Notes: generated from the sequence alone by a model not told the origin. A DNA stretch of 40,815 nt from a virus (IMGVR_UViG_3300010282_000006:74315-115129), one strand, 5' to 3'. Counted from the first letter of the stretch, positions 24,822 to 34,785 are shown. Numbers and translations are program-made.

Positions 24822-25358
24822 ATGAAGGCAATGTCAATCAGCGAGGCGCTTAGATATGCGAATCAGAAGATCCGTCCGATGGTCAACGACGCATTGGGCG
24901 GGGAAGTCCTTGATACCGTCGCCGAGGTTGAGCACGCGAAGATCCAGAGTGAAGTGTACGACAAGCACAAGCCGAAGCATTACAAGCGGCGCGGCGATCG
25001 CGGCGGCCTTTCTGATATGGAGCACAATCTTGCAATCAACAACGCATCACTCAAGCTCGGCGCGTTGTATGTTGAGAACGTGACACCGCCCAATCCGTTC
25101 AACAACGGCGTCGGCGTGCGACCAATCGACGGTGTAGGCGGGTACTCATCGACAACTCCGGATGAGCCGATTGCCGGACTTGTTGAGCGTGGAACCTACA
25201 ATCCGAACGGGTACGGATACGATTACTGGTCTGATGCGTTTGCCAGACCGTTTATCGCGAAGACGCGCGCGGCGCTGCGCGGCGGGAAAGCGCAGAAAGC
25301 GCTTGCGGACGGACTCAGACGGAATGGTCTGACGGTTATTACTAAGAAAGGACGGTGA
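24822..25358 (+). CDS. putative neck/tail component (HK97 gp10-like)
   Basis: YKRRG..GGL and RPFIAKT motifs; coupled to TMP. Confidence 0.4.
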   Translation: MKAMSISEALRYANQKIRPMVNDALGGEVLDTVAEVEHAKIQSEVYDKHKPKHYKRRGDRGGLSDMEHNLAINNASLKLGALYVENVTPPNPFNNGVGVRPIDGVGGYSSTTPDEPIAGLVERGTYNPNGYGYDYWSDAFARPFIAKTRAALRGGKAQKALADGLRRNGLTVITKKGR

Positions 25359-28300
25359 TGAGCTTGGCTGAAAATGACGATCTGATGATAGTGGTAAGGA
25401 CGCGGCTGGAGGCTGACGAGGAAGCGTCGGCACAGCGAATTTCGGCGCAGCTTCCGTCCATTGCGGCAAAAATCAACGAGAAGAGCAGCATCAAGGTCGG
25501 TGTGACGCTGGATGAGCGCAACACCGACAGGCTGCAAAACAGCATTTCCCAGCAGCTTTCGCGCATACATGTCGATCCCGTCAATATTGGCATCAAGGTA
25601 ACGGGTGATGCAAAGAAGATGCTGCGAGAGGCAATGGCCGGCAGCGGTATCGACGAGAGCTCCGAGCTGATGAAGTCCATGACGAAGAACCTCACCGGCA
25701 TGGATGTGCAGGTCGGTAAGATCCATGCGCAGTGGGTGAAGGTGGGAAGGCAAAAAGAGCGGCTGCTACAGCTCGACATCTACGGGCGCGATGCGCTTGG
25801 TAAAGAAGTTCTGCTGATGCAGCAGTATGCGCAAAACGGGCGCAAGGTTGATGAGCAGGTAAAGGACGTCACGTTGAATATTGATAAGCTCAACAGACAG
25901 TCCGAGCAGGCGGCGAGAAAAGAACAGCGCGACAACGAAAACCGCCTCAATTACATTCGCGCGCAGAGCGACGCCCTTGAAAAACTTAAGGCGCAGTATT
26001 TGTCGCCGAAGGACGGTCTTCACGGAGAGAATCTGGAGAGCGCCGAGTCGCAATATGCGAAAATATCTGCGAGGCTTGATGAGCTGCGCGCAAAGAACGG
26101 CGCGTTGACGGACGAGGAAAAACGCGGCATTGACGGCGTTATCGCCGAGATGCAGCGCGAGATACAGACCATGAAGCAGGTGGAGTCCGTCGAAGAGAGC
26201 GCGGCGCGCAAGTCAAAAAGTGAAAATGACGCGCGCGTGGCTTCGCTTACCACGTTGTCGTCAAAGCTGGATGCCGTACAGAAGAAGTATCAGGGCTTGA
26301 CCGGCGTGAAGGGCGTGCAGGGTGAAGGCCATCTGAGCGAGCTGAACCGGAAGTATCAGGAAATCTTTGATACGATTACGCGGTTGCAAGGTGCAACTGG
26401 CGCGCTGAGCCAGACGCAAAGGACGGAAATTGACGCGCAGATCAAAGAACTCGACAGGCTAAGCGATCAGTATTACCGTGTTGAGCATGTGGCGACGCAG
26501 CTTCGCACCAAGAATGTCTGGGAGGTCAATTCCGATTATGCGAATGAGCTGGACGTCTACGCGAAGAAGCTGCAAACGTCCGGGCTTTTGACGAAGGATT
26601 TTGAAGAACGTATCGCCTCGCTTCGCAATCAGCTTTCAACCGCGTTTGACAGCAAGAGCCTGACCGACTTTGCAGATCAGTTTGACCGCTTGAAGGGCGC
26701 GGTCGGATCGTTCAAGGCCGGACAGGAGCTTGAGGCGACGATCGGGCGCATCAACAGCGAGATGGCGGTCATGCCGTCTCAGTTCCAGGCGGCGGAAAGA
26801 CGTCTTGAAGGCATAATTCATCCAACCGAAACGCTTGAGGCGAACATGAGGCGGCTTCGGGATCTTTCGGCGCAGGTCAACAGTGAGCAGGACGCCAACC
26901 GCAAGATTGAGGCGTACAACCGGCTGAAACAGACGCTTGCGCTGGTAAATACCGAGATGGCGGCGCTGACGCGAACGCAGAATACTGGACTGCGCGACGA
27001 GAAGCTGACGGCGAATTTGGAGAAGGCGAAGGCGGATCTTCTGACGGTCGGAAGAACGTGGAGCGCGCTCAAGGCTGACAAGGGACTGAATTTGCAGTTT
27101 GAGCAGCTTTTGGCGAATCTCGACCGCGTGAACAATGCCGGAGATCTTTCCAAGTGGCGCGCGGAGTTCAACGCCTTTAAGAGTGAGGTCAAGGCTGCCG
27201 GAAAGAATGTGCAGTCGCTTGGTGACATCCTCAAGAACAACCTTGGCAAGGTTTTGCAGTGGGTGAGCGCAACAACGCTTTTATTCCGTGCGATAAGGTA
27301 CTTGCGGCAAGGCATCCAGACGGTTGTTGACCTTAATACCGCGATGATCGACCTACGCAAGGTGACGAAGGCAACCGGCGAAGAGTACGAGGCGTTTTAC
27401 CGCCAGTCGAATGAGACGGCAAAGCAGCTCAATCTGACGACGCAGGAGGTCATTTCGCAGACGGCCGAGTTTGCCCGATTGGGATATGCACTTGAGGATG
27501 CCTCGAAGCTCGCGCAGAACGCAGCAATCTTCAAGATGGTCTCTCCCGGCATGAGTCAGGAGACGGCGGTTGACGGACTTATCAGCATCGTCAAGGCGTA
27601 CGGCATTGAGGTCGAAGACACAATGGATGGCATCATCTCGAAAATCAACGAGGTGGGTAATAAGTTTGCCGTCAGCAACAACGACCTCGTTGAGGTGATG
27701 ACGCGCGCGTCGAGCGCGATGTCCGCAGCCAACAATACGTTTGAGGAGACCGTTGCGCTTGCGACGGCTGCTATTGAAATCACGAGGGACGCCGCCACGA
27801 CGGGCAATGCCCTGAAGACGCTTTCCATGAGGATTCGCGGCTACGACGAGTCCACGGAGGAATATTCCGAGGACGTTGCCGTTCTGACCGGCAAAATCGC
27901 CGATCTTACAAAGGTCGCAGGGAATGGCGGAAAGGGCGTGAGCCTCTTTGAGGTAGGTGATCCCAACACATATCGTTCGACCTACGCGATCTTGCAGGAC
28001 ATCGCGGCGATCTGGGACGAGTTGACAGACAAGAACCGCGCGCAACTGCTGGAAGCTCTGTTCGGTAAACGTCAGGCGCAGGTTGGCAGCGCGATCCTTT
28101 CCAACTTCTCTCAGGCAGCCGACGCGATGGACAAGATGGCGGACAGCGCAGGAAGCGCCGAGCGCGAGATGGCGAAGGTTATGGAGAGCGTGGAGTACCG
28201 CGCGAACGCCCTCAAGGAAACTTGGGTAGGCATTGCGCAGAATATATTCCAGAGCGACGATTTGAAGCTGGGGATTTCCCTTCTCCAGACTATCTCCAAT

Positions 28301-28396
28301 GTTATTGATACGCTGACCGACAAGCTGGGATTGCTTGGCACGGTCGGCATCGCGGCGACTATCGCGTCTTTGCGTAAGTTGAACGCGACGGCGGGT
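25355..28396 (+). CDS. tape measure protein, exon 1 (1014 codons; unspliced frame reads on to stop at 28471)
   Basis: Long coiled coil plus TMP core (FEETVALATAAIEITRD..GNALKTLSMRIRG); ends at U of the P1 U.G pair. Confidence 0.85.
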
Positions 28397-28609
28397 GAAC
28401 CCAAAGTGACGGGTTTCATGATTGCGCCCGCCTATACCCCGGTGGCGACACGGAACGAGCTTGCGGCATGACCGCAGGCAAGGGGGTATTGGAAAAACCG
28501 ACGAACATGGCTCCGCGTGGAGCTGCGAGTTTAGATCATTCTCGCACGGGAAGCCCGAAAGGGTAATCCGCAGCCAAGCTCATTATACAAGCAGTCTCAT
28601 AAAACAGAA

Positions 28610-28642
28610 CAGAGAGCCGGTGCTACTTTCACCGGCTCTCTG
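28610..28642 (-). terminator. intrinsic terminator for antisense peptide gene
   Basis: 13-bp perfect stem CAGAGAGCCGGTG/CACCGGCTCTCTG followed on minus strand by TTCTGTTTT. Confidence 0.75.
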
Positions 28643-28656
28643 CCGCAGTCTGCGCA

Positions 28657-28740
28657 TTACCTGTCGCGCCTGCTGAGAATTGCGTCGTAGAGAGCCATCG
28701 AAATGAGGTTCAGTACGATGATGTTGATGTACTCAGCCAT
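28657..28740 (-). CDS. 27-aa hydrophobic peptide, type I toxin-like (MAEYINIIVLNLISMALYDAILSRRDR)
   Basis: GGAGGTG RBS 6 nt before ATG; single hydrophobic helix plus charged tail; own promoter and terminator. Confidence 0.65.
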   Translation of the reverse strand: MAEYINIIVLNLISMALYDAILSRRDR

Positions 28741-28830
28741 AGCGTTCACCTCCGTCACGTCCGAAGTGTCGGGCGAATCGCAGAGCGATTGAAGCACAGA
28801 GGCTTGTACGGAGGACAGACTGACAAAACG

Positions 28831-28859
28831 ATTATACTGCGACAGGCAGAGCTTGTCAA
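28831..28859 (-). promoter_or_regulatory. perfect sigma-A/sigma-70 consensus promoter (antisense, inside intron P6 loop)
   Basis: Minus strand TTGACA (28859-54), 17 nt, TATAAT (28836-31). Confidence 0.85.
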
Positions 28860-28999
28860 ATTGTATGGTGAGAGGGTTCAGAGAGCATAATGTCGGCACG
28901 GTCTACGGATTGTGATGGGGTGCTCCAAATCCAACCGCCCGCCAGAAATGGCGGGCGGTCAAAATGATATGCGGTCAAGCCGCCGCAGATCGAAAATGG

Positions 29000-29683
29000 C
29001 TAAAATCTACATCCACAGTTGTTGCATTTCCACGTTTTGCCTATGTCACCGGCTCCAAAAATGCCAAAGGCGTAGACCTTGAGAAAGCTGCCGGTCTTGG
29101 AGATTTTCGTCAGACTGGTAGAGCGGCAATAAGGGCAGGTAGGGATGTTGGCTGCAGGTTTTGGTACGGCGGTTGAAATCGGTTTCCATGTCGAACGATC
29201 AACCAGATCCTTGACGGGTGCTGGAGGTTCGCGCGGGGGAAGGTCGCGAAGAGAGCGGCTACGGTTGAGCTGACCGTATAAGTCATTTAGGTGAGCTTTG
29301 TATTCTTGAGACAATTTATCGCCGATGTTGCGAGGAAAAATCAGTTGCTCAAAATGATCCGCTTCTTTTTCCAAAACGCCGCTCGACTCTGATTGCGGCA
29401 AGTCGATTTCAACGTATGGCGCGTTGCAGTTACACATTGGCTTGCCATTTTTGCTTGGCTGAGCCTCGTTGTAGTAATACTCTCTCGCGCATTTGGCGCA
29501 GACCTTGACACGCGGCTCCTTTGATGAAAGCTGGAACATTGCAACCTGCGACAGAAGTTTTTGGTGGTAGTCGCTTTGCTCCTTCTGCTTGAGATGGTTC
29601 GCAATCGGAAAGCCGCAGTGCGGACAGGACACCGCTGCGGAAGACACTTGCTGATTGCACTCAGGACACACGATAAGCGCCAT
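29000..29683 (-). CDS. triple zinc-ribbon protein (antisense, inside intron P9 region)
   Basis: CPEC..CPHC, CAKC..CNC, CPYC..CNNC; AAAGGAG RBS 10 nt before ATG 29683. Confidence 0.8.
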   Translation of the reverse strand: MALIVCPECNQQVSSAAVSCPHCGFPIANHLKQKEQSDYHQKLLSQVAMFQLSSKEPRVKVCAKCAREYYYNEAQPSKNGKPMCNCNAPYVEIDLPQSESSGVLEKEADHFEQLIFPRNIGDKLSQEYKAHLNDLYGQLNRSRSLRDLPPREPPAPVKDLVDRSTWKPISTAVPKPAANIPTCPYCRSTSLTKISKTGSFLKVYAFGIFGAGDIGKTWKCNNCGCRF

Positions 29684-29713
29684 AAACCACACGCTCCTTT
29701 CTGCTTGCTATGG

Positions 29714-29742
29714 ATTATATCACTAACACAACGGGATTTCAA
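29714..29742 (-). promoter_or_regulatory. sigma-A promoter with extended -10 driving the zinc-ribbon gene
   Basis: Minus strand TTGAAA (29742-37), 17 nt, TG-n-TATAAT (29719-14). Confidence 0.8.
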
Positions 29743-29784
29743 CGATAATCTTCGTATTGATCACACGAGGGTTGGGATGGATTG

Positions 29785-32700
29785 GCAATTATGCCCGTTG
29801 TGGAAGCGCTTCGAGCAACGCAAATTGTTTACGATGACACCATTGCGGCACAGGCGACGTATGCTACACAGCTTACAAGTCTGGATGTTGTTCATCAAAA
29901 AGCGGTGCTGAGCCAGATGAACCTCAACAGTACGCAGCGTGAAGCTATTTTGAATTTTGCAAAGTTGTCAGCCGCAGGACAATCTTATACCGTTGGCACT
30001 TTGGCGTTGGCAGCGGGTGTTGATAAGGTTAGGCTTGCCGAGTCTTTACAGCTTGCCGAGACCGAGCAGTTGACGGCAGAGACGATCGCGTGCGCTGTTG
30101 CGACTGGAGCGCTTCGTGGGGAAGATGCGCAGCTCGTGATTCAGTTTTTGACACATAAGGCGGCGACGGACGGCGTGACAGCATCGACGAATCTGATGAA
30201 CATGTCGCTCAAGGAGACCGCCGCGCTGATGTTGGCGACTCCTATGGGCTGGATCACCATGCTCACCATGCTTATCCCGCTGCTCATTACCGCAGCCAAG
30301 AAATTCAAGGAGTTGTATGACGCGGCGCATCCGACACTTCAGCAGATGCAGGACGACCTTGGTGATGCAGAGAATGAACTGGACGAACTGGATGGCAAGC
30401 TGGACGAGAACAAAAAGCGGATCGCGGAGCTTCGCGCACTGCGCGATGGAGGCACGATTTCCATTGTGGAGAGTGAGGAGCTAAAGCGGCTCGAACGCGA
30501 GAACGAGCTTCTTACCCAGCAAATTCAGCTTCAGAAAGACCTGATTGCCGCGAGGCAGAATGACATTTATACGAAGGCTGCAGAGGATGCGGGCGCATGG
30601 CTCAGTGACAGCGGCTACGAGATCAAAGGTCATGGCAACTCTGAACGGCAGGAGCAGGCGTACACCGGCGCTGGCGGCCTTTCTGCAGCAATTAACGACT
30701 ACAAGACCGCCAAGGCTGCATTCGATCAGGCGGTTGCTAACGGAGCTGCCGCTGCGACGGACGCTGAAAAGAAGAAATTCAAAGAAGCCGCAGACGAGTA
30801 CAAGGCGTCTATGGAAACCGCGCTTGCGCGTATGGTCGATTTGCAGGACGAGGCAATCAAGCTGCGCAATGCGCTCAATCCGGACGATCCGGAATCCGCA
30901 GGGCTGATTCGAGAACTCGATCTCGCGCTTGACCGCATTGCTGTGCTGCAAGATCCTGAATCTGCGCGCAACTCCATTTTCGGTCGCTTCTTTGAAACGG
31001 AAGCAGACCTCACCAACGAGAAAATCGCTGAGTTCAACACATATCTCAGGGAGCTCGGCCTGATTACGGAGGACATCCCGAAGGACGAGCTTGCCGATAT
31101 GCTCAGAAACACAGGCGATGCAGCGGAGGACGAGGCGGACAAAATCAAGGGGCTTATCGACGTGCTCGATAAGTTTGGCGTCGAGTCCAAAGAAATCTAT
31201 GCGCACGGCGGCAACGTGGATCTTCTTGACCGGCGCGTGGTGGAAGTCACCAACGCCAACCTCGGCAAGGTTCAGACGCACGACGCCAACGCACAGGTCG
31301 GCGACCGCATGACGGTGCTCTCGAAGACAATTCAGCACGGTGACGCCGCGCTGGTTGTGACGCCGATTCTCCCGAATGGCGAAATTTTGTCCGACGCAGA
31401 GCTTGACAAGTATGTCGAAAAGGTCGTTAAGGCGGCAAAGAAGGACAAGAGTACCAACTATCAGGCATACGACCAGAATGGTGTCTTTCTCGGTGTGTTT
31501 GGCGATCACGCCACATTTGAAAAGAACAACGAGGAAGCAGAGCGGTTTGCCGAAAGGCTGCATGATATCCATGAGGCAATTCTGGAGGCCGGAAGCGGCA
31601 GCGAGCTTTCCGAGCTGGTTGCGGAGCTGCAAGACCTGACGGAGTACACTCCGAGCGTTTCGACGTTGGCGGAGAAATTTGCCGACGCCGAGGGCAAGGT
31701 TGAAAAGCTCGGCAAGGCACTGCAGGAGTTCGGCAAGGAAGGTTCGATTGCAGCGGACACACTCGCTGAAATCGGCAAGGACTTCGGCGATTATGAGAGC
31801 TATGAAAAATTTGCCAAGGTGCTGATGGACTCCACCTCTACGATGGAGGAGGCGCAGGCGGCGGCTGACGCGCTGGCAAGCGAGTTTATGAACTCGACGA
31901 CGGCGCTTGACATGCTGCGCGAGGGCAATGCCGATCTTGTGAAGGCGATGCTCGAAAAGATTGGCGTGACGAACGCGGATGAAGTTGTGGAATCCCGCCT
32001 GCGGATCGTGCGGTTGGAAGCGAAGGTCGCGGCGCTGGGCTTGGCGGACGCCGAGTGGAGCGTTGTCGAAGAGAAGCTGCGCGAGATCGGCGTGACCAAT
32101 GCGGACATTACCGCGATTGAAGCATTGCGCAAAAAGCAGATTGAGGCGAAAATCGCCACAACCGATTTTGCAACTGCGAACGCAAGCACAATCGCTACGC
32201 TCATTCAGATGGCAAATGCCGCTGGCATTGCCGGAAAGCGGATGGAGATCCTTGCGCAGATGCAGCGTGTTGAGGCGTCTGAGACAGATAAGACGTCCGC
32301 TCGTTATGGCGCATATATGGCAGATGCAAAGAGGCGGCTTCTGGAGGGCTTCACTGACGATTTGAAGGTGGAGTTGCCAGAAATCAAGGTCGTTGTGCCG
32401 AAGGCCAACGGTTCCGGCAGCGGCTCCGGAAGCGATTCTTCCAAGAAGGAAACGGAAAAGTATTTCGCCGAGATCGACCGCTTCCGCGATGCGGTCAAGC
32501 GGCTTGCAGATGCGCAGGAGGAAGCGGAGAGGCTGAACGGCGAGCTTGGGCGCACGGAAGGTCTGTGGGATCAGGTCAAGATTCACAAATCTCTCGTGGA
32601 CACCTACGAGAACGAGCAGACGGCGTTGCACGATCTCAACGAAGAGCGCCGCAAAGCGATTCGAGAAGGGGTCGAGAAGCTGCAAAATCTTGGCTTTGAC

Positions 32701-34785
32701 GTCATCTATGACGCAGAGACCAACGACCTCTTCATCAATAACCTTGAACATCTCAACGATCTTGCCACGACGGATCTCAACAAGTACGAGACGATGGCTG
32801 ACATGTCCGTCAATATTCTCGGTCAGTACGACAACGCCCAAGAAGCGACCAACGGACTCATCAAGGACACCGAGGGCATCATCGACAACATCACCAAGTT
32901 CAACGACGCCAACAAGGAAGGTTCGGAGACGTGGTGGGAGAGACGCGACGCCATTCATGCGTCGAAACAGAGCATCATCGACGATCTTAAACAGATCACG
33001 GAAAACGCGCACGACGCGGTGGATGAAATCCAAAACGTCTATGACACGCTGCACGCGGCGGCAGATGAGTTTGCGGCAAACGACGGCTATTTGACCATTG
33101 ACACCTATCAATCCATTTTGCAGCTTGGCACGCAGTATATGGCGTATCTTTACGATGAAAACGGTCTTCTTGTCATCAACGAAGAGCGTATTCAGGCTGT
33201 GATTGCGGCAAAGACGGAACAGCTTGCGCTGGAACAGGCGCTCACCTATGTGGATCGGCTGAGACTGGCGCTGGAAAAGGGTTCTATTGAAAATCTGAAC
33301 GAGCTGCTGTATGCGACGCAGGATGCGACCGATGCGACATGGGATTTGGTGTACGCCAACCTTAAACTGCTCGATTTGTCGGATGATCAGTTTGCGGCGG
33401 CGATGCACAACATCAATGCGATTCGCTCGCTTGCGGACGCTGCGGTTGCCGGAATCGGAAAGAGCGCCGGAGCGTTTGCCGACTCGCTCAATGAGATGAA
33501 GGACGGGTTGGACAGTATCCTTCGGTACACGATGGATATGCTCAGGCAGCGGATCGAGGATCAGATCGACGCGCTTGAGGAGCAGAAAAGCGCCTACGGC
33601 GATTTGATTGACGCGCAGAAAGAAATGCTGCGCAATACCAAGAATCAGAACGATTATCAGAAATCGGTTGCGTCCAAGCTCAAGGAGATGGCGAAGCTCC
33701 AAAAGGAGATCGCCTCTTTGACAACGGCGGCGGAATCAGGAGACCGAAGCGCGGCTGCGAAGCGCGCGAAGCTCCAAGAAGAGCTTGCCGAGCTGAGCGA
33801 GGATCTTGCGGACGAGCAGAACGAGCACGCTATCGAAGTAGCCGAGAAAGCGCTTGACAAACAGCAGGCAGCTTTTGAGGCGGAGAAGGATGACGAGATC
33901 AAGACGCTACGAAATAGTATTTCTTCTCAACAGAAGCTCTACGATATGGCAATTAGCTATATTGAAAGCCGTTGGGACAAGCTCTATGGTGAGCTGATCG
34001 ACTGGAACACTGAGTACGGCAGCGACCTCAACAGCGATATCGCGTCCGCATGGGACAAAGCGTATGAGGCAGCAGAGCGATACGGAAGCTATGTAAGCGC
34101 GCTGGGAAGCATTGACGCGGACATTGCCGCAACGAGCGGCGGAAACAGAGGAAATACCGCCACTGGCGTTAATACTGCTGTCGGCAGGACGAGCACTTCT
34201 GGCAATGAAGCGATGGCGACGGCATGGGTCGAGCAGATGAAAGCGAACAGCGCGGCGTGGCACAGCGCGAGCGATAAGCGCAAGGCTGATTTGGCTGCTG
34301 AAAACAAGCGTATCGCTAAAGAGGAGCTTCCGGAATGCGGCGTAATCGCAGACATCGGAGACGACGGTGTGTGGTATCTCAAAAACGGGAAGAGGCTCTA
34401 CGACGTCTATCACAGCGGCGGAATCGTTGGCGGTGACGCTTCGCTTAAGCAGGACGAGCTGTTCGCAAAGCTCCAAAAGGGCGAGATGGTCTTATCGCGT
34501 GAAATGGTAGATCGGATGATCCGGCACTTTGATATGCTCAAGAAGCTGGGGGAGTCCATTGCGAGCCGACCGATGGACGGTCGGCTGCTTGCGCAAGATC
34601 TTGCAGCGCTTGGCATCGGCAAGACGGTGAATAACGTGACGAGCAACGAGAGCAGCCGGCCTGTGAGCATCGTGTTTGGCGATACGCATATCAGCGGTGC
34701 GGATAAAAGTACGGTTCAGCAGCATGTGATGCTTACCGAAGGTATGAAGAAGGAAATCGCGCGTTGGCTTGGTTTCCGTATGTAG
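29785..34785 (+). CDS. tape measure protein, exon 2 (1666 aa; spliced product ~2680 aa)
   Basis: No RBS before the ORF-track start; helical/coiled-coil sequence; C-terminal YHSGGIVG..KGEMV TMP motif; in frame with exon 1 after splicing. Confidence 0.85.
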   Translation, partial: AIMPVVEALRATQIVYDDTIAAQATYATQLTSLDVVHQKAVLSQMNLNSTQREAILNFAKLSAAGQSYTVGTLALAAGVDKVRLAESLQLAETEQLTAETIACAVATGALRGEDAQLVIQFLTHKAATDGVTASTNLMNMSLKETAALMLATPMGWITMLTMLIPLLITAAKKFKELYDAAHPTLQQMQDDLGDAENELDELDGKLDENKKRIAELRALRDGGTISIVESEELKRLERENELLTQQIQLQKDLIAARQNDIYTKAAEDAGAWLSDSGYEIKGHGNSERQEQAYTGAGGLSAAINDYKTAKAAFDQAVANGAAAATDAEKKKFKEAADEYKASMETALARMVDLQDEAIKLRNALNPDDPESAGLIRELDLALDRIAVLQDPESARNSIFGRFFETEADLTNEKIAEFNTYLRELGLITEDIPKDELADMLRNTGDAAEDEADKIKGLIDVLDKFGVESKEIYAHGGNVDLLDRRVVEVTNANLGKVQTHDANAQVGDRMTVLSKTIQHGDAALVVTPILPNGEILSDAELDKYVEKVVKAAKKDKSTNYQAYDQNGVFLGVFGDHATFEKNNEEAERFAERLHDIHEAILEAGSGSELSELVAELQDLTEYTPSVSTLAEKFADAEGKVEKLGKALQEFGKEGSIAADTLAEIGKDFGDYESYEKFAKVLMDSTSTMEEAQAAADALASEFMNSTTALDMLREGNADLVKAMLEKIGVTNADEVVESRLRIVRLEAKVAALGLADAEWSVVEEKLREIGVTNADITAIEALRKKQIEAKIATTDFATANASTIATLIQMANAAGIAGKRMEILAQMQRVEASETDKTSARYGAYMADAKRRLLEGFTDDLKVELPEIKVVVPKANGSGSGSGSDSSKKETEKYFAEIDRFRDAVKRLADAQEEAERLNGELGRTEGLWDQVKIHKSLVDTYENEQTALHDLNEERRKAIREGVEKLQNLGFDVIYDAETNDLFINNLEHLNDLATTDLNKYETMADMSVNILGQYDNAQEATNGLIKDTEGIIDNITKFNDANKEGSETWWERRDAIHASKQSIIDDLKQITENAHDAVDEIQNVYDTLHAAADEFAANDGYLTIDTYQSILQLGTQYMAYLYDENGLLVINEERIQAVIAAKTEQLALEQALTYVDRLRLALEKGSIENLNELLYATQDATDATWDLVYANLKLLDLSDDQFAAAMHNINAIRSLADAAVAGIGKSAGAFADSLNEMKDGLDSILRYTMDMLRQRIEDQIDALEEQKSAYGDLIDAQKEMLRNTKNQNDYQKSVASKLKEMAKLQKEIASLTTAAESGDRSAAAKRAKLQEELAELSEDLADEQNEHAIEVAEKALDKQQAAFEAEKDDEIKTLRNSISSQQKLYDMAISYIESRWDKLYGELIDWNTEYGSDLNSDIASAWDKAYEAAERYGSYVSALGSIDADIAATSGGNRGNTATGVNTAVGRTSTSGNEAMATAWVEQMKANSAAWHSASDKRKADLAAENKRIAKEELPECGVIADIGDDGVWYLKNGKRLYDVYHSGGIVGGDASLKQDELFAKLQKGEMVLSREMVDRMIRHFDMLKKLGESIASRPMDGRLLAQDLAALGIGKTVNNVTSNESSRPVSIVFGDTHISGADKSTVQQHVMLTEGMKKEIARWLGFRM

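Follow-up and report, generated by a model that had tools for sequence, protein, structure and literature searches.

A 227-aa protein with three Cys4 clusters (P0001) is encoded on the antisense strand of a predicted group I intron in a phage tape-measure gene and is equipped with a promoter of its own. We propose, tentatively and at somewhat less than an even chance, that the gene is an autonomous accessory ("moron") gene which would be transcribed by the host RNA polymerase and act in phage-phage or phage-host conflict. The DNA analyzed, here called the window (40,815 nt), forms the final 40.8 kb of an IMG/VR record of 115 kb (IMGVR_UViG_3300010282_000006), a provirus by classification, in which two tyrosine integrases are encoded. 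The 115-kb element also encodes a sigma-like factor, and relatives occur in Oscillospiraceae, Clostridiaceae, Lachnospiraceae, and Ruminococcaceae assemblies.

The zinc-ribbon gene, its expression signals, and selection

The P0001 open reading frame runs on the minus strand from the ATG at 29683 to 29003; together with the stop codon (29000-29002) the CDS occupies 29000..29683. A GTG located 9 bases upstream of the ATG would give a protein of 230 aa, and the ATG was chosen as the start because MALIxCPEC opens all homologues. Between P0001 and its 96% identical homologue in L026 (a phage 96-98% identical to the one studied here) we found 28 nucleotide and 10 amino-acid changes, which correspond to a dN/dS of 0.17; the gene is therefore considered real and under purifying selection.

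A sigma-A/sigma-70-type promoter with an extended -10 element (TTGAAA-17-TGaTATAAT; 29714..29742, minus strand) precedes the gene. As located by consensus match, the TTGAAA hexamer lies at 29742-29737 and is followed by a 17-nt spacer and the -10 element at 29719-14. The first-pass annotation of this region had already pointed to this motif as TTGAAA-17-TGnTATAAT, with the -35 element ~40 nt from the 3' splice site; both statements held, as 11 of 12 consensus positions plus the TG are matched, the promoter type is kept in eight loci, and the distance is 42 nt from the inferred 29784|29785 boundary. An extended -10 promoter was found 18-36 nt upstream of the ATG in all intron-resident homologues examined (8/8), despite their diverged surroundings. 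Promoter-like sites in the region were not above shuffled sequences in number (2 found vs. 1.4 expected), so it is the quality and the conservation of the promoter that carry weight, not the number of sites. A ribosome-binding site, AAAGGAG (29693..29699, minus strand), is visible in the sequence 9 nt ahead of the ATG. Directly after the P0001 stop codon, a terminator-like hairpin followed by a T-run is present on the minus strand (28970..28987); it is conserved in the alignment, and on the plus strand the same sequence forms a conserved intron helix. A 9-bp GC-rich hairpin (28936..28957), which is the intron P9 and covaries in L002 and L007, is a possible second terminator for the antisense transcript. 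From the quality of the promoter, expression of the P0001 gene may be constitutive.

The gene is oriented antisense to the late tail operon and has a GC3 of 57%, compared to 66-71% in the tape-measure exons. It thus combines the features by which morons are recognized: a host-type promoter and its own terminator (both consensus matches), distinct orientation and composition, and patchy occurrence among related phages. The earlier proposal of a moron-type independent transcription unit is backed by the promoter, the terminator hairpins, the opposite orientation, the GC3 difference, and the location in a provirus with integrases.

The host intron in the tape-measure gene

Two open reading frames of 1,038 and 1,667 aa that flank the zinc-ribbon gene are halves of one tape-measure protein (~2,700 aa). 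By homologue alignment, exon 1 (25355..28396, plus strand) ends with ...KLNATAG and exon 2 (29785..34785, plus strand) begins with AIMPVVEALRA..., and hundreds of uninterrupted tape-measure relatives of 2,500-3,000 aa align across the exon junction. Judged by exon continuity, P1/P10 covariation, and ordered core motifs, the intervening sequence (28397..29784, plus strand) is a genuine group I intron, for which splicing is predicted. Exon 1 ends at 28396 (GGU). Its heptamer pairs with an internal guide sequence (IGS) located ~30 nt into the intron, and a U.G pair marks the splice site. Across nine loci the exon heptamer takes four different forms, each of them perfectly matched by compensating changes in the IGS. 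In P10, AUUGC located 5' of the guide G pairs with GCAAU at 29785, with compensatory or wobble variants in L008, L010, and L011; on account of this pairing the 3' splice site is placed after G29784. The J3/4, Q, R, and P7' motifs were found in order in nine loci (the window and eight related loci). The R/P7/P7' core lies at 28874-28932, and the P0001 ORF, which had been assigned to the P9 region, is indeed located 3' of P7'/P9, where it fills the space that separates P9 from the intron's 3' end.

Rfam searches of the window, at the gathering score and at E <= 10, gave no intron match, which we attribute to a 277-nt insertion that splits the core and to the narrowness of the model; the core of the relative L002 gave a sub-threshold match to Intron_gpI (E = 0.079). 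Between KLN/KFR and (I/M)PV, the tape-measure protein predicted from the joined exons has 4 residues fewer than the ten intron-less homologues compared, and an equal 4-residue deficit was counted by hand in L010 relative to intron-less P0095. Moving the 5' splice site to a position after EPKV would bring back the 10-residue spacing of the intron-less homologues; this alternative was rejected since it lacks P1 pairing, whereas the site at 28396 has four-fold covariation.

The 277-nt insertion is located in the P6 loop (28584..28860, minus strand) and is absent from L026. It is a self-contained unit consisting of a perfect promoter (TTGACA-17-TATAAT), a ribosome-binding site (GGAGGTG), a gene for a 27-aa hydrophobic peptide (28740-28657; MAEYINIIVL...SRRDR), and a strong terminator. 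The peptide shares IIVL (residues 7-10) and an RRD tail with a 58-aa membrane protein encoded after the zinc-ribbon gene in relatives; the window intron has no 58-aa gene, and the 27-aa peptide unit is separate. This P6-loop insertion is not part of the zinc-ribbon unit.

Exon 1 of some relatives carries an additional interruption, after KINEVG in L002 (7903-9221) and L026 (7959-9195) and after ITRDAA in L008 (8050-9467) and L011 (10254-10530). The ORFs within these interruptions are on the sense strand and are of the DUF2726 type in L002 and L026, or 156 aa in length with no Pfam match in L008; no gene was called in the extra 277-nt gap of L011. Exon 1 of the window is uninterrupted at both the KINEVG and ITRDAA sites.

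Domains and predicted structure of P0001

The three Cys4 clusters of P0001 (C6/9/20/23, C62/65/84/86, and C183/186/220/223) are invariant or nearly so among 18-29 homologues with identities down to ~35%, in agreement with the antisense 227-aa protein with three such clusters that had been described at first. The N-terminal zinc ribbon (residues 1-26, with C6, C9, C20, and C23; 29606..29683, minus strand) has invariant cysteines and matches Pfam UPF0547/Zn_Ribbon_1 over residues 6-25 (E = 1.6e-7). This UPF0547 match was the only one above the Pfam threshold; the C-terminus gave weak generic ribbon matches, among them Zn_ribbon_PaaD with an E value of 0.047, below threshold. In nine proteins that share the C-terminal module, Zn_ribbon_PaaD matches ranged from 4e-6 to 2e-2, the best scoring 26.7 bits vs. 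a cut-off of 27. The central domain (residues 28-168; 29180..29602, minus strand) contains the C62, C65, C84, and C86 site, a VEVDYP strand, a PRNIGD loop, and three helices plus a hairpin. When it was folded alone by AF2 with 29 homologues, the model reached a pLDDT of 94 and a pTM of 0.87 and consisted of a long helix, a zinc-bound hairpin, and two more helices; the AF2 model of the whole protein had a pLDDT of 78 and a pTM of 0.60. The C-terminal zinc-ribbon module (residues 177-227, with C183, C186, C220, and C223; 29003..29155, minus strand) has a Gly-rich loop FGIFGAGDIGKTW and a terminal GxxF, and it is common to ~2,800 protein clusters.

The Pro-rich linker and the short hydrophobic segment noted in the first reading of the protein were both found again. 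The linker (residues ~150-182) precedes the third Cys4 cluster, which encloses the loop FLKVYAFGIFGAGDIGKTW, and the hydrophobic stretch FLKVYAFGIFGAG comprises 13 residues (200-212), with a best 19-residue Kyte-Doolittle mean of 0.88. This hydropathy is too low for the loop to form a transmembrane helix. A LITAF-like monotopic membrane ribbon was also considered and rejected (13 residues vs. the ~20 or more needed; zf-LITAF-like E = 0.31). We infer that P0001 is soluble or at most peripheral and binds three zinc ions.

The proposed search for a known fold with Foldseek on the predicted model returned no match, either for the whole protein or for the central domain. For the central domain, the best hit among 48,161 PDB representatives had a Z of 3.4 (VIA-wide) and Foldseek against PDB gave none at E <= 0.001; for the whole model, nothing above noise was found in PDB (Foldseek; VIA-wide best Z 3.3), BFVD, or the Atlas (features and shape). 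PDB sequence profile searches with P0001 or its central domain gave no match. All PHROGs matches were of 'unknown function', NCBIfam gave nothing useful for P0001, and no defense model in PADLOC-DB 2.0 matched it at E <= 0.1. Structural matches to C3PO/translin with a Z of about 3 were judged to be helix-packing noise. A Walker A/P-loop NTPase reading of GAGDIGKT was rejected (the motif lies in a low-confidence zinc-ribbon loop, and T is replaced by Q, as in GKQWHC, in the wider module), as was a PD-(D/E)XK reading of GD-x4-EYK (a string that lacks a conserved K and falls within a helix). The CxxC...CxxC knuckles of the N-terminus resemble those of Zn_Ribbon_1/UPF0547, and the knuckles of the C-terminus resemble those of Zn_ribbon_PaaD/IS1595-type ribbons; UPF0547 and the PaaD/IS1595-type ribbons are generic structural modules, whereas the central domain of P0001 belongs to no family.

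Relatives of P0001 and the C-terminal module across the intron family

P0001 has 92 homologues at E <= 1e-3, about 20 of which are full length. The full architecture occurs in ~20-30 clusters and the terminal ribbons only in ~2,800 (2,795) clusters; in the Atlas, most of the clusters closest to P0001 in sequence features are viral. Counting only homologues on long contigs, all placed homologues (L002-L012, L018, and L026; 33-96% identity) occupy one position: they lie in the same tape-measure intron, in antisense orientation, immediately within its 3' splice site.

A scan of IMG/VR for the intron-core pattern yielded 66 loci, of which 40 extend far enough downstream to be informative. In 38 of these 40 copies, an antisense ORF next to the 3' splice site ends in the shared C-terminal zinc-ribbon module, and for 27 of those 38, in which the exon-2 frame is visible, the ORF starts within ~200 nt of that frame. 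A C-module gene is also found by the 3' splice site in L001, and the arrangement recurs in MT837120. This fixed position and orientation across intron copies hints at a link to the intron itself.

The N-terminal parts of the C-module intron proteins are of at least three unrelated types: MALIxCPEC (as in the window), a majority type 'MKIGE...YLREQADPG' with no N-terminal cysteines, and 'MFKK.YIMYCPVCGY'. One protein of the majority 'MKFG/MKIGE' cargo type (L057, 6474-7085) showed a weak and non-significant Pfam match to AIPR, an abortive-infection protein (E = 0.036). Elsewhere, the C-terminal module is fused to the L7/L12 C-terminal domain or to HEAT repeats; in P0244 and one Atlas cluster, the ribosomal L7/L12 C-terminal domain stands between the same two zinc-ribbon handles. 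The L7/L12 case hints that the variable middle parts bind host machinery. In P0214 (L018, 5001-6128; 375 aa), the central Cys4/NIGD domain is tandemly duplicated, and the domain is therefore regarded as an independent module. The picture suggested by these sequence comparisons is of a C-terminal module that may serve as a constant handle with swappable effector parts.

A widespread 190-aa C-module protein, P0065 (144 member sequences, 220 contigs), is encoded at 6001-6573 in L022-L025 (Lachnospira contigs). Its gene is divergent from, and upstream of, a gene for a 770-839-aa protein, and a DUF6558 (PF20195) gene follows five genes on. The searched intron-core motifs are absent at this locus, which looks like a decayed tail region.

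The introns of relatives carry additional cargo. The zinc-ribbon gene is followed, within its own antisense unit, by a partner gene, which encodes a 50-58-aa membrane protein in L026, L002, L007, and L008, a 142-aa protein in L011, and an Mrr_cat nuclease in L018. Sense-strand cargo in the same intron of relatives comprises a PemK-like protein with SocA_Panacea, a PD-T4-10_B-like protein, or an AAA_16 ATPase. PADLOC searches of this neighboring cargo gave ZorD/Mrr-like and PD-T4-10_B matches. In L018 (5001-9583) and L011 (5313-8785) the intron is 4-5 kb long, with Mrr_cat/ZorD-like, PemK-like plus SocA_Panacea, DUF6575/PD-T4-10_B-like, and AAA_16 cargo. Going by these predicted gene products, the intron is a hotspot for defense- or toxin-antitoxin (TA)-like cargo in the relatives.

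Proposed role as an accessory gene and comparison with known systems

If P0001 is encoded by an autonomous accessory gene, the host RNA polymerase would read it from the extended -10 promoter, against the late tail operon; with a promoter of its own, the protein could therefore be made in the lysogen or in early infection, independent of tail-gene expression. Hairpins that also serve as intron helices would terminate the antisense transcription. The gene would sit in a dispensable 3' peripheral region of the group I intron, and since splicing removes the intron, the tape-measure protein would not be impaired by the cargo. The two terminal zinc ribbons may be generic handles around a target-binding, family-specific central domain, and the protein might act by superinfection exclusion, defense, or host takeover. 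The swapping of N-terminal and central parts, the constancy of the C-module, and the duplication of the central domain in P0214 form a pattern typical of conflict genes. The proposal is also favored by the other accessory genes that occupy this intron slot in relatives and by the full-length relatives found on their own in other mobile elements. On the other side, Pfam, NCBIfam, PHROGs, and PADLOC offered only generic zinc ribbons and no functional homologue, the fixed placement of the C-module gene next to the 3' splice site is more constant than expected for an optional moron, and P0001 differs from known exclusion proteins such as HK97 gp15 or Ltp in that its hydrophobic loop is too weak to insert into a membrane.

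The arrangement resembles the prophage morons HK97 gp15 and Ltp of S. thermophilus phage TP-J34, which exclude superinfecting phages, each a promoter-gene-terminator unit readable by the host polymerase among the late tail genes of a temperate phage (PMC3594210; PMC3952083). A further parallel is that gp15 and Ltp have the tape measure as their target (PMC3594210; PMC3952083), and the P0001 gene is in physical linkage with the tape-measure gene. However, P0001 has no sequence or fold similarity to these proteins and is neither a membrane protein nor a lipoprotein; its gene, moreover, lies antisense inside a self-splicing intron and not between genes.

Group I introns in tape-measure genes have been described before: prophages of the Bacillus cereus group carry TMP-IVS1/2/3 (Tourasse and Kolsto 2008, PMC2504315). 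Like the intron described here, these are prophage tape-measure introns that are patchy among related phages and whose IGS/P1 adapts to the exon (PMC2504315). TMP-IVS1/2/3 carry homing endonuclease genes, remnants of them, or nothing, and no promoter-driven antisense zinc-ribbon gene is described there (PMC2504315). A protein gene on the strand opposite to the group I ribozyme is also known from the nuclear rDNA L2066 introns (PMC9548176); those introns, however, are eukaryotic and encode recognizable His-Cys box nucleases, whereas the P0001 gene has a bacterial promoter and no nuclease signature was found in its product.

Alternative explanations

Homing endonucleases shuffle DNA-binding and catalytic modules, and a location within a group I intron fits such genes. 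P0001 could be an intron mobility or maintenance factor, namely a non-canonical homing endonuclease or its DNA-binding subunit, in which the C-terminal ribbon recognizes the tape-measure target and the N-terminal/central part acts on DNA; we regard this as possible but unlikely. In its favor, P0001 is the only substantial ORF in the window intron, and the near-universal presence of a C-module gene by the 3' splice site (38/40 informative copies, plus L001) points the same way. The intron is also patchy: the tape-measure protein of intron-less P0094 is 54% identical to that of the window, compared to 33-38% for the intron-bearing L008, L010, and L011. Antisense homing endonuclease genes do exist in nuclear rDNA group I introns (PMC9548176). 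However, no homing-endonuclease domain or motif (LAGLIDADG, GIY-YIG, HNH, His-Cys box, PD-(D/E)XK, or EDxHD) was found in P0001 by Pfam, NCBIfam, PDB profile, Foldseek, or VIA searches, even with a central-domain model of pLDDT 94, and the N-terminal parts fall into at least three unrelated and unrecognized types. The identities of the zinc-ribbon and tape-measure proteins track each other (68/56, 64/66, 43/38, 38/33, and 35/37%), which argues for long vertical co-residence rather than recent homing. The host-type promoter and the antisense orientation of the gene also speak against a mobility factor, as does the failure to find an empty site: a search of IMG/VR with the exact ligated exon junction gave 19 matches, all of them unrelated chance matches with ~57/180 nt identity.

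Three full-length relatives occur as free-standing genes remote from any tape-measure intron: L021 lies in an integrase/Tn916-Xis region, L046 is on a short Oscillospiraceae contig, and L047 is in a Clostridiaceae prophage whose contig carries an uninterrupted 2,968-aa tape-measure gene at a distance of 41 kb. The function of the protein therefore does not require the intron. The homing nuclease that had been offered as the alternative in the first-pass annotation finds no support in sequence or fold, and the relatives outside introns weaken it further.

It is also conceivable, at a similarly low level of confidence, that the C-module proteins are obligatory, position-fixed passengers of the intron with a new central fold, either as a homing/retention factor or as a target-linked tape-measure exclusion protein.

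A regulatory role, in which the zinc-ribbon protein or the antisense transcription controls the late tail genes, splicing, or the lysis-lysogeny decision, appears rather improbable. Over its whole length, the antisense transcript would be complementary to the intron's 3' 800 nt, and the antisense unit begins 42 nt inward of the 3' splice site. Nucleic-acid binding is common among zinc ribbons, P0001 is net basic (29 K+R vs. 21 D+E), and its model gave structural echoes of the NrdR and TFS4 ribbons. These echoes (Z about 3) are at noise level, however, and the strong protein-level constraint together with the swappable N-terminal domains points to the protein itself, rather than transcription as such, as what matters; moreover, the free-standing relatives have no intron to regulate. 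That the ORF is a chance occurrence or the decaying remnant of a former intron ORF is extremely improbable: apart from the lack of an annotated family nothing favors it, and it is at odds with the 92 homologues and 2,795 module clusters, the invariant Cys ligands, the low dN/dS, and the confident structure model.

Significance

In bacteria and phages, a group I intron is expected to hold either a homing endonuclease gene on the sense strand or no gene at all. In the introns described here, the constant passenger is a backwards, promoter-equipped zinc protein that does not look like a nuclease, and in relatives the same slot collects defense- and TA-type genes. Our literature search found no paper on a promoter-driven antisense zinc-ribbon gene in a phage intron. 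Under the preferred accessory-gene reading, and if the prophage expresses P0001, introns that interrupt essential structural genes would be safe harbors for lysogenic-conversion or conflict genes. Such expression would also provide the first functional handle for an abundant zinc-ribbon module (~2,800 clusters) of gut Clostridia phages.
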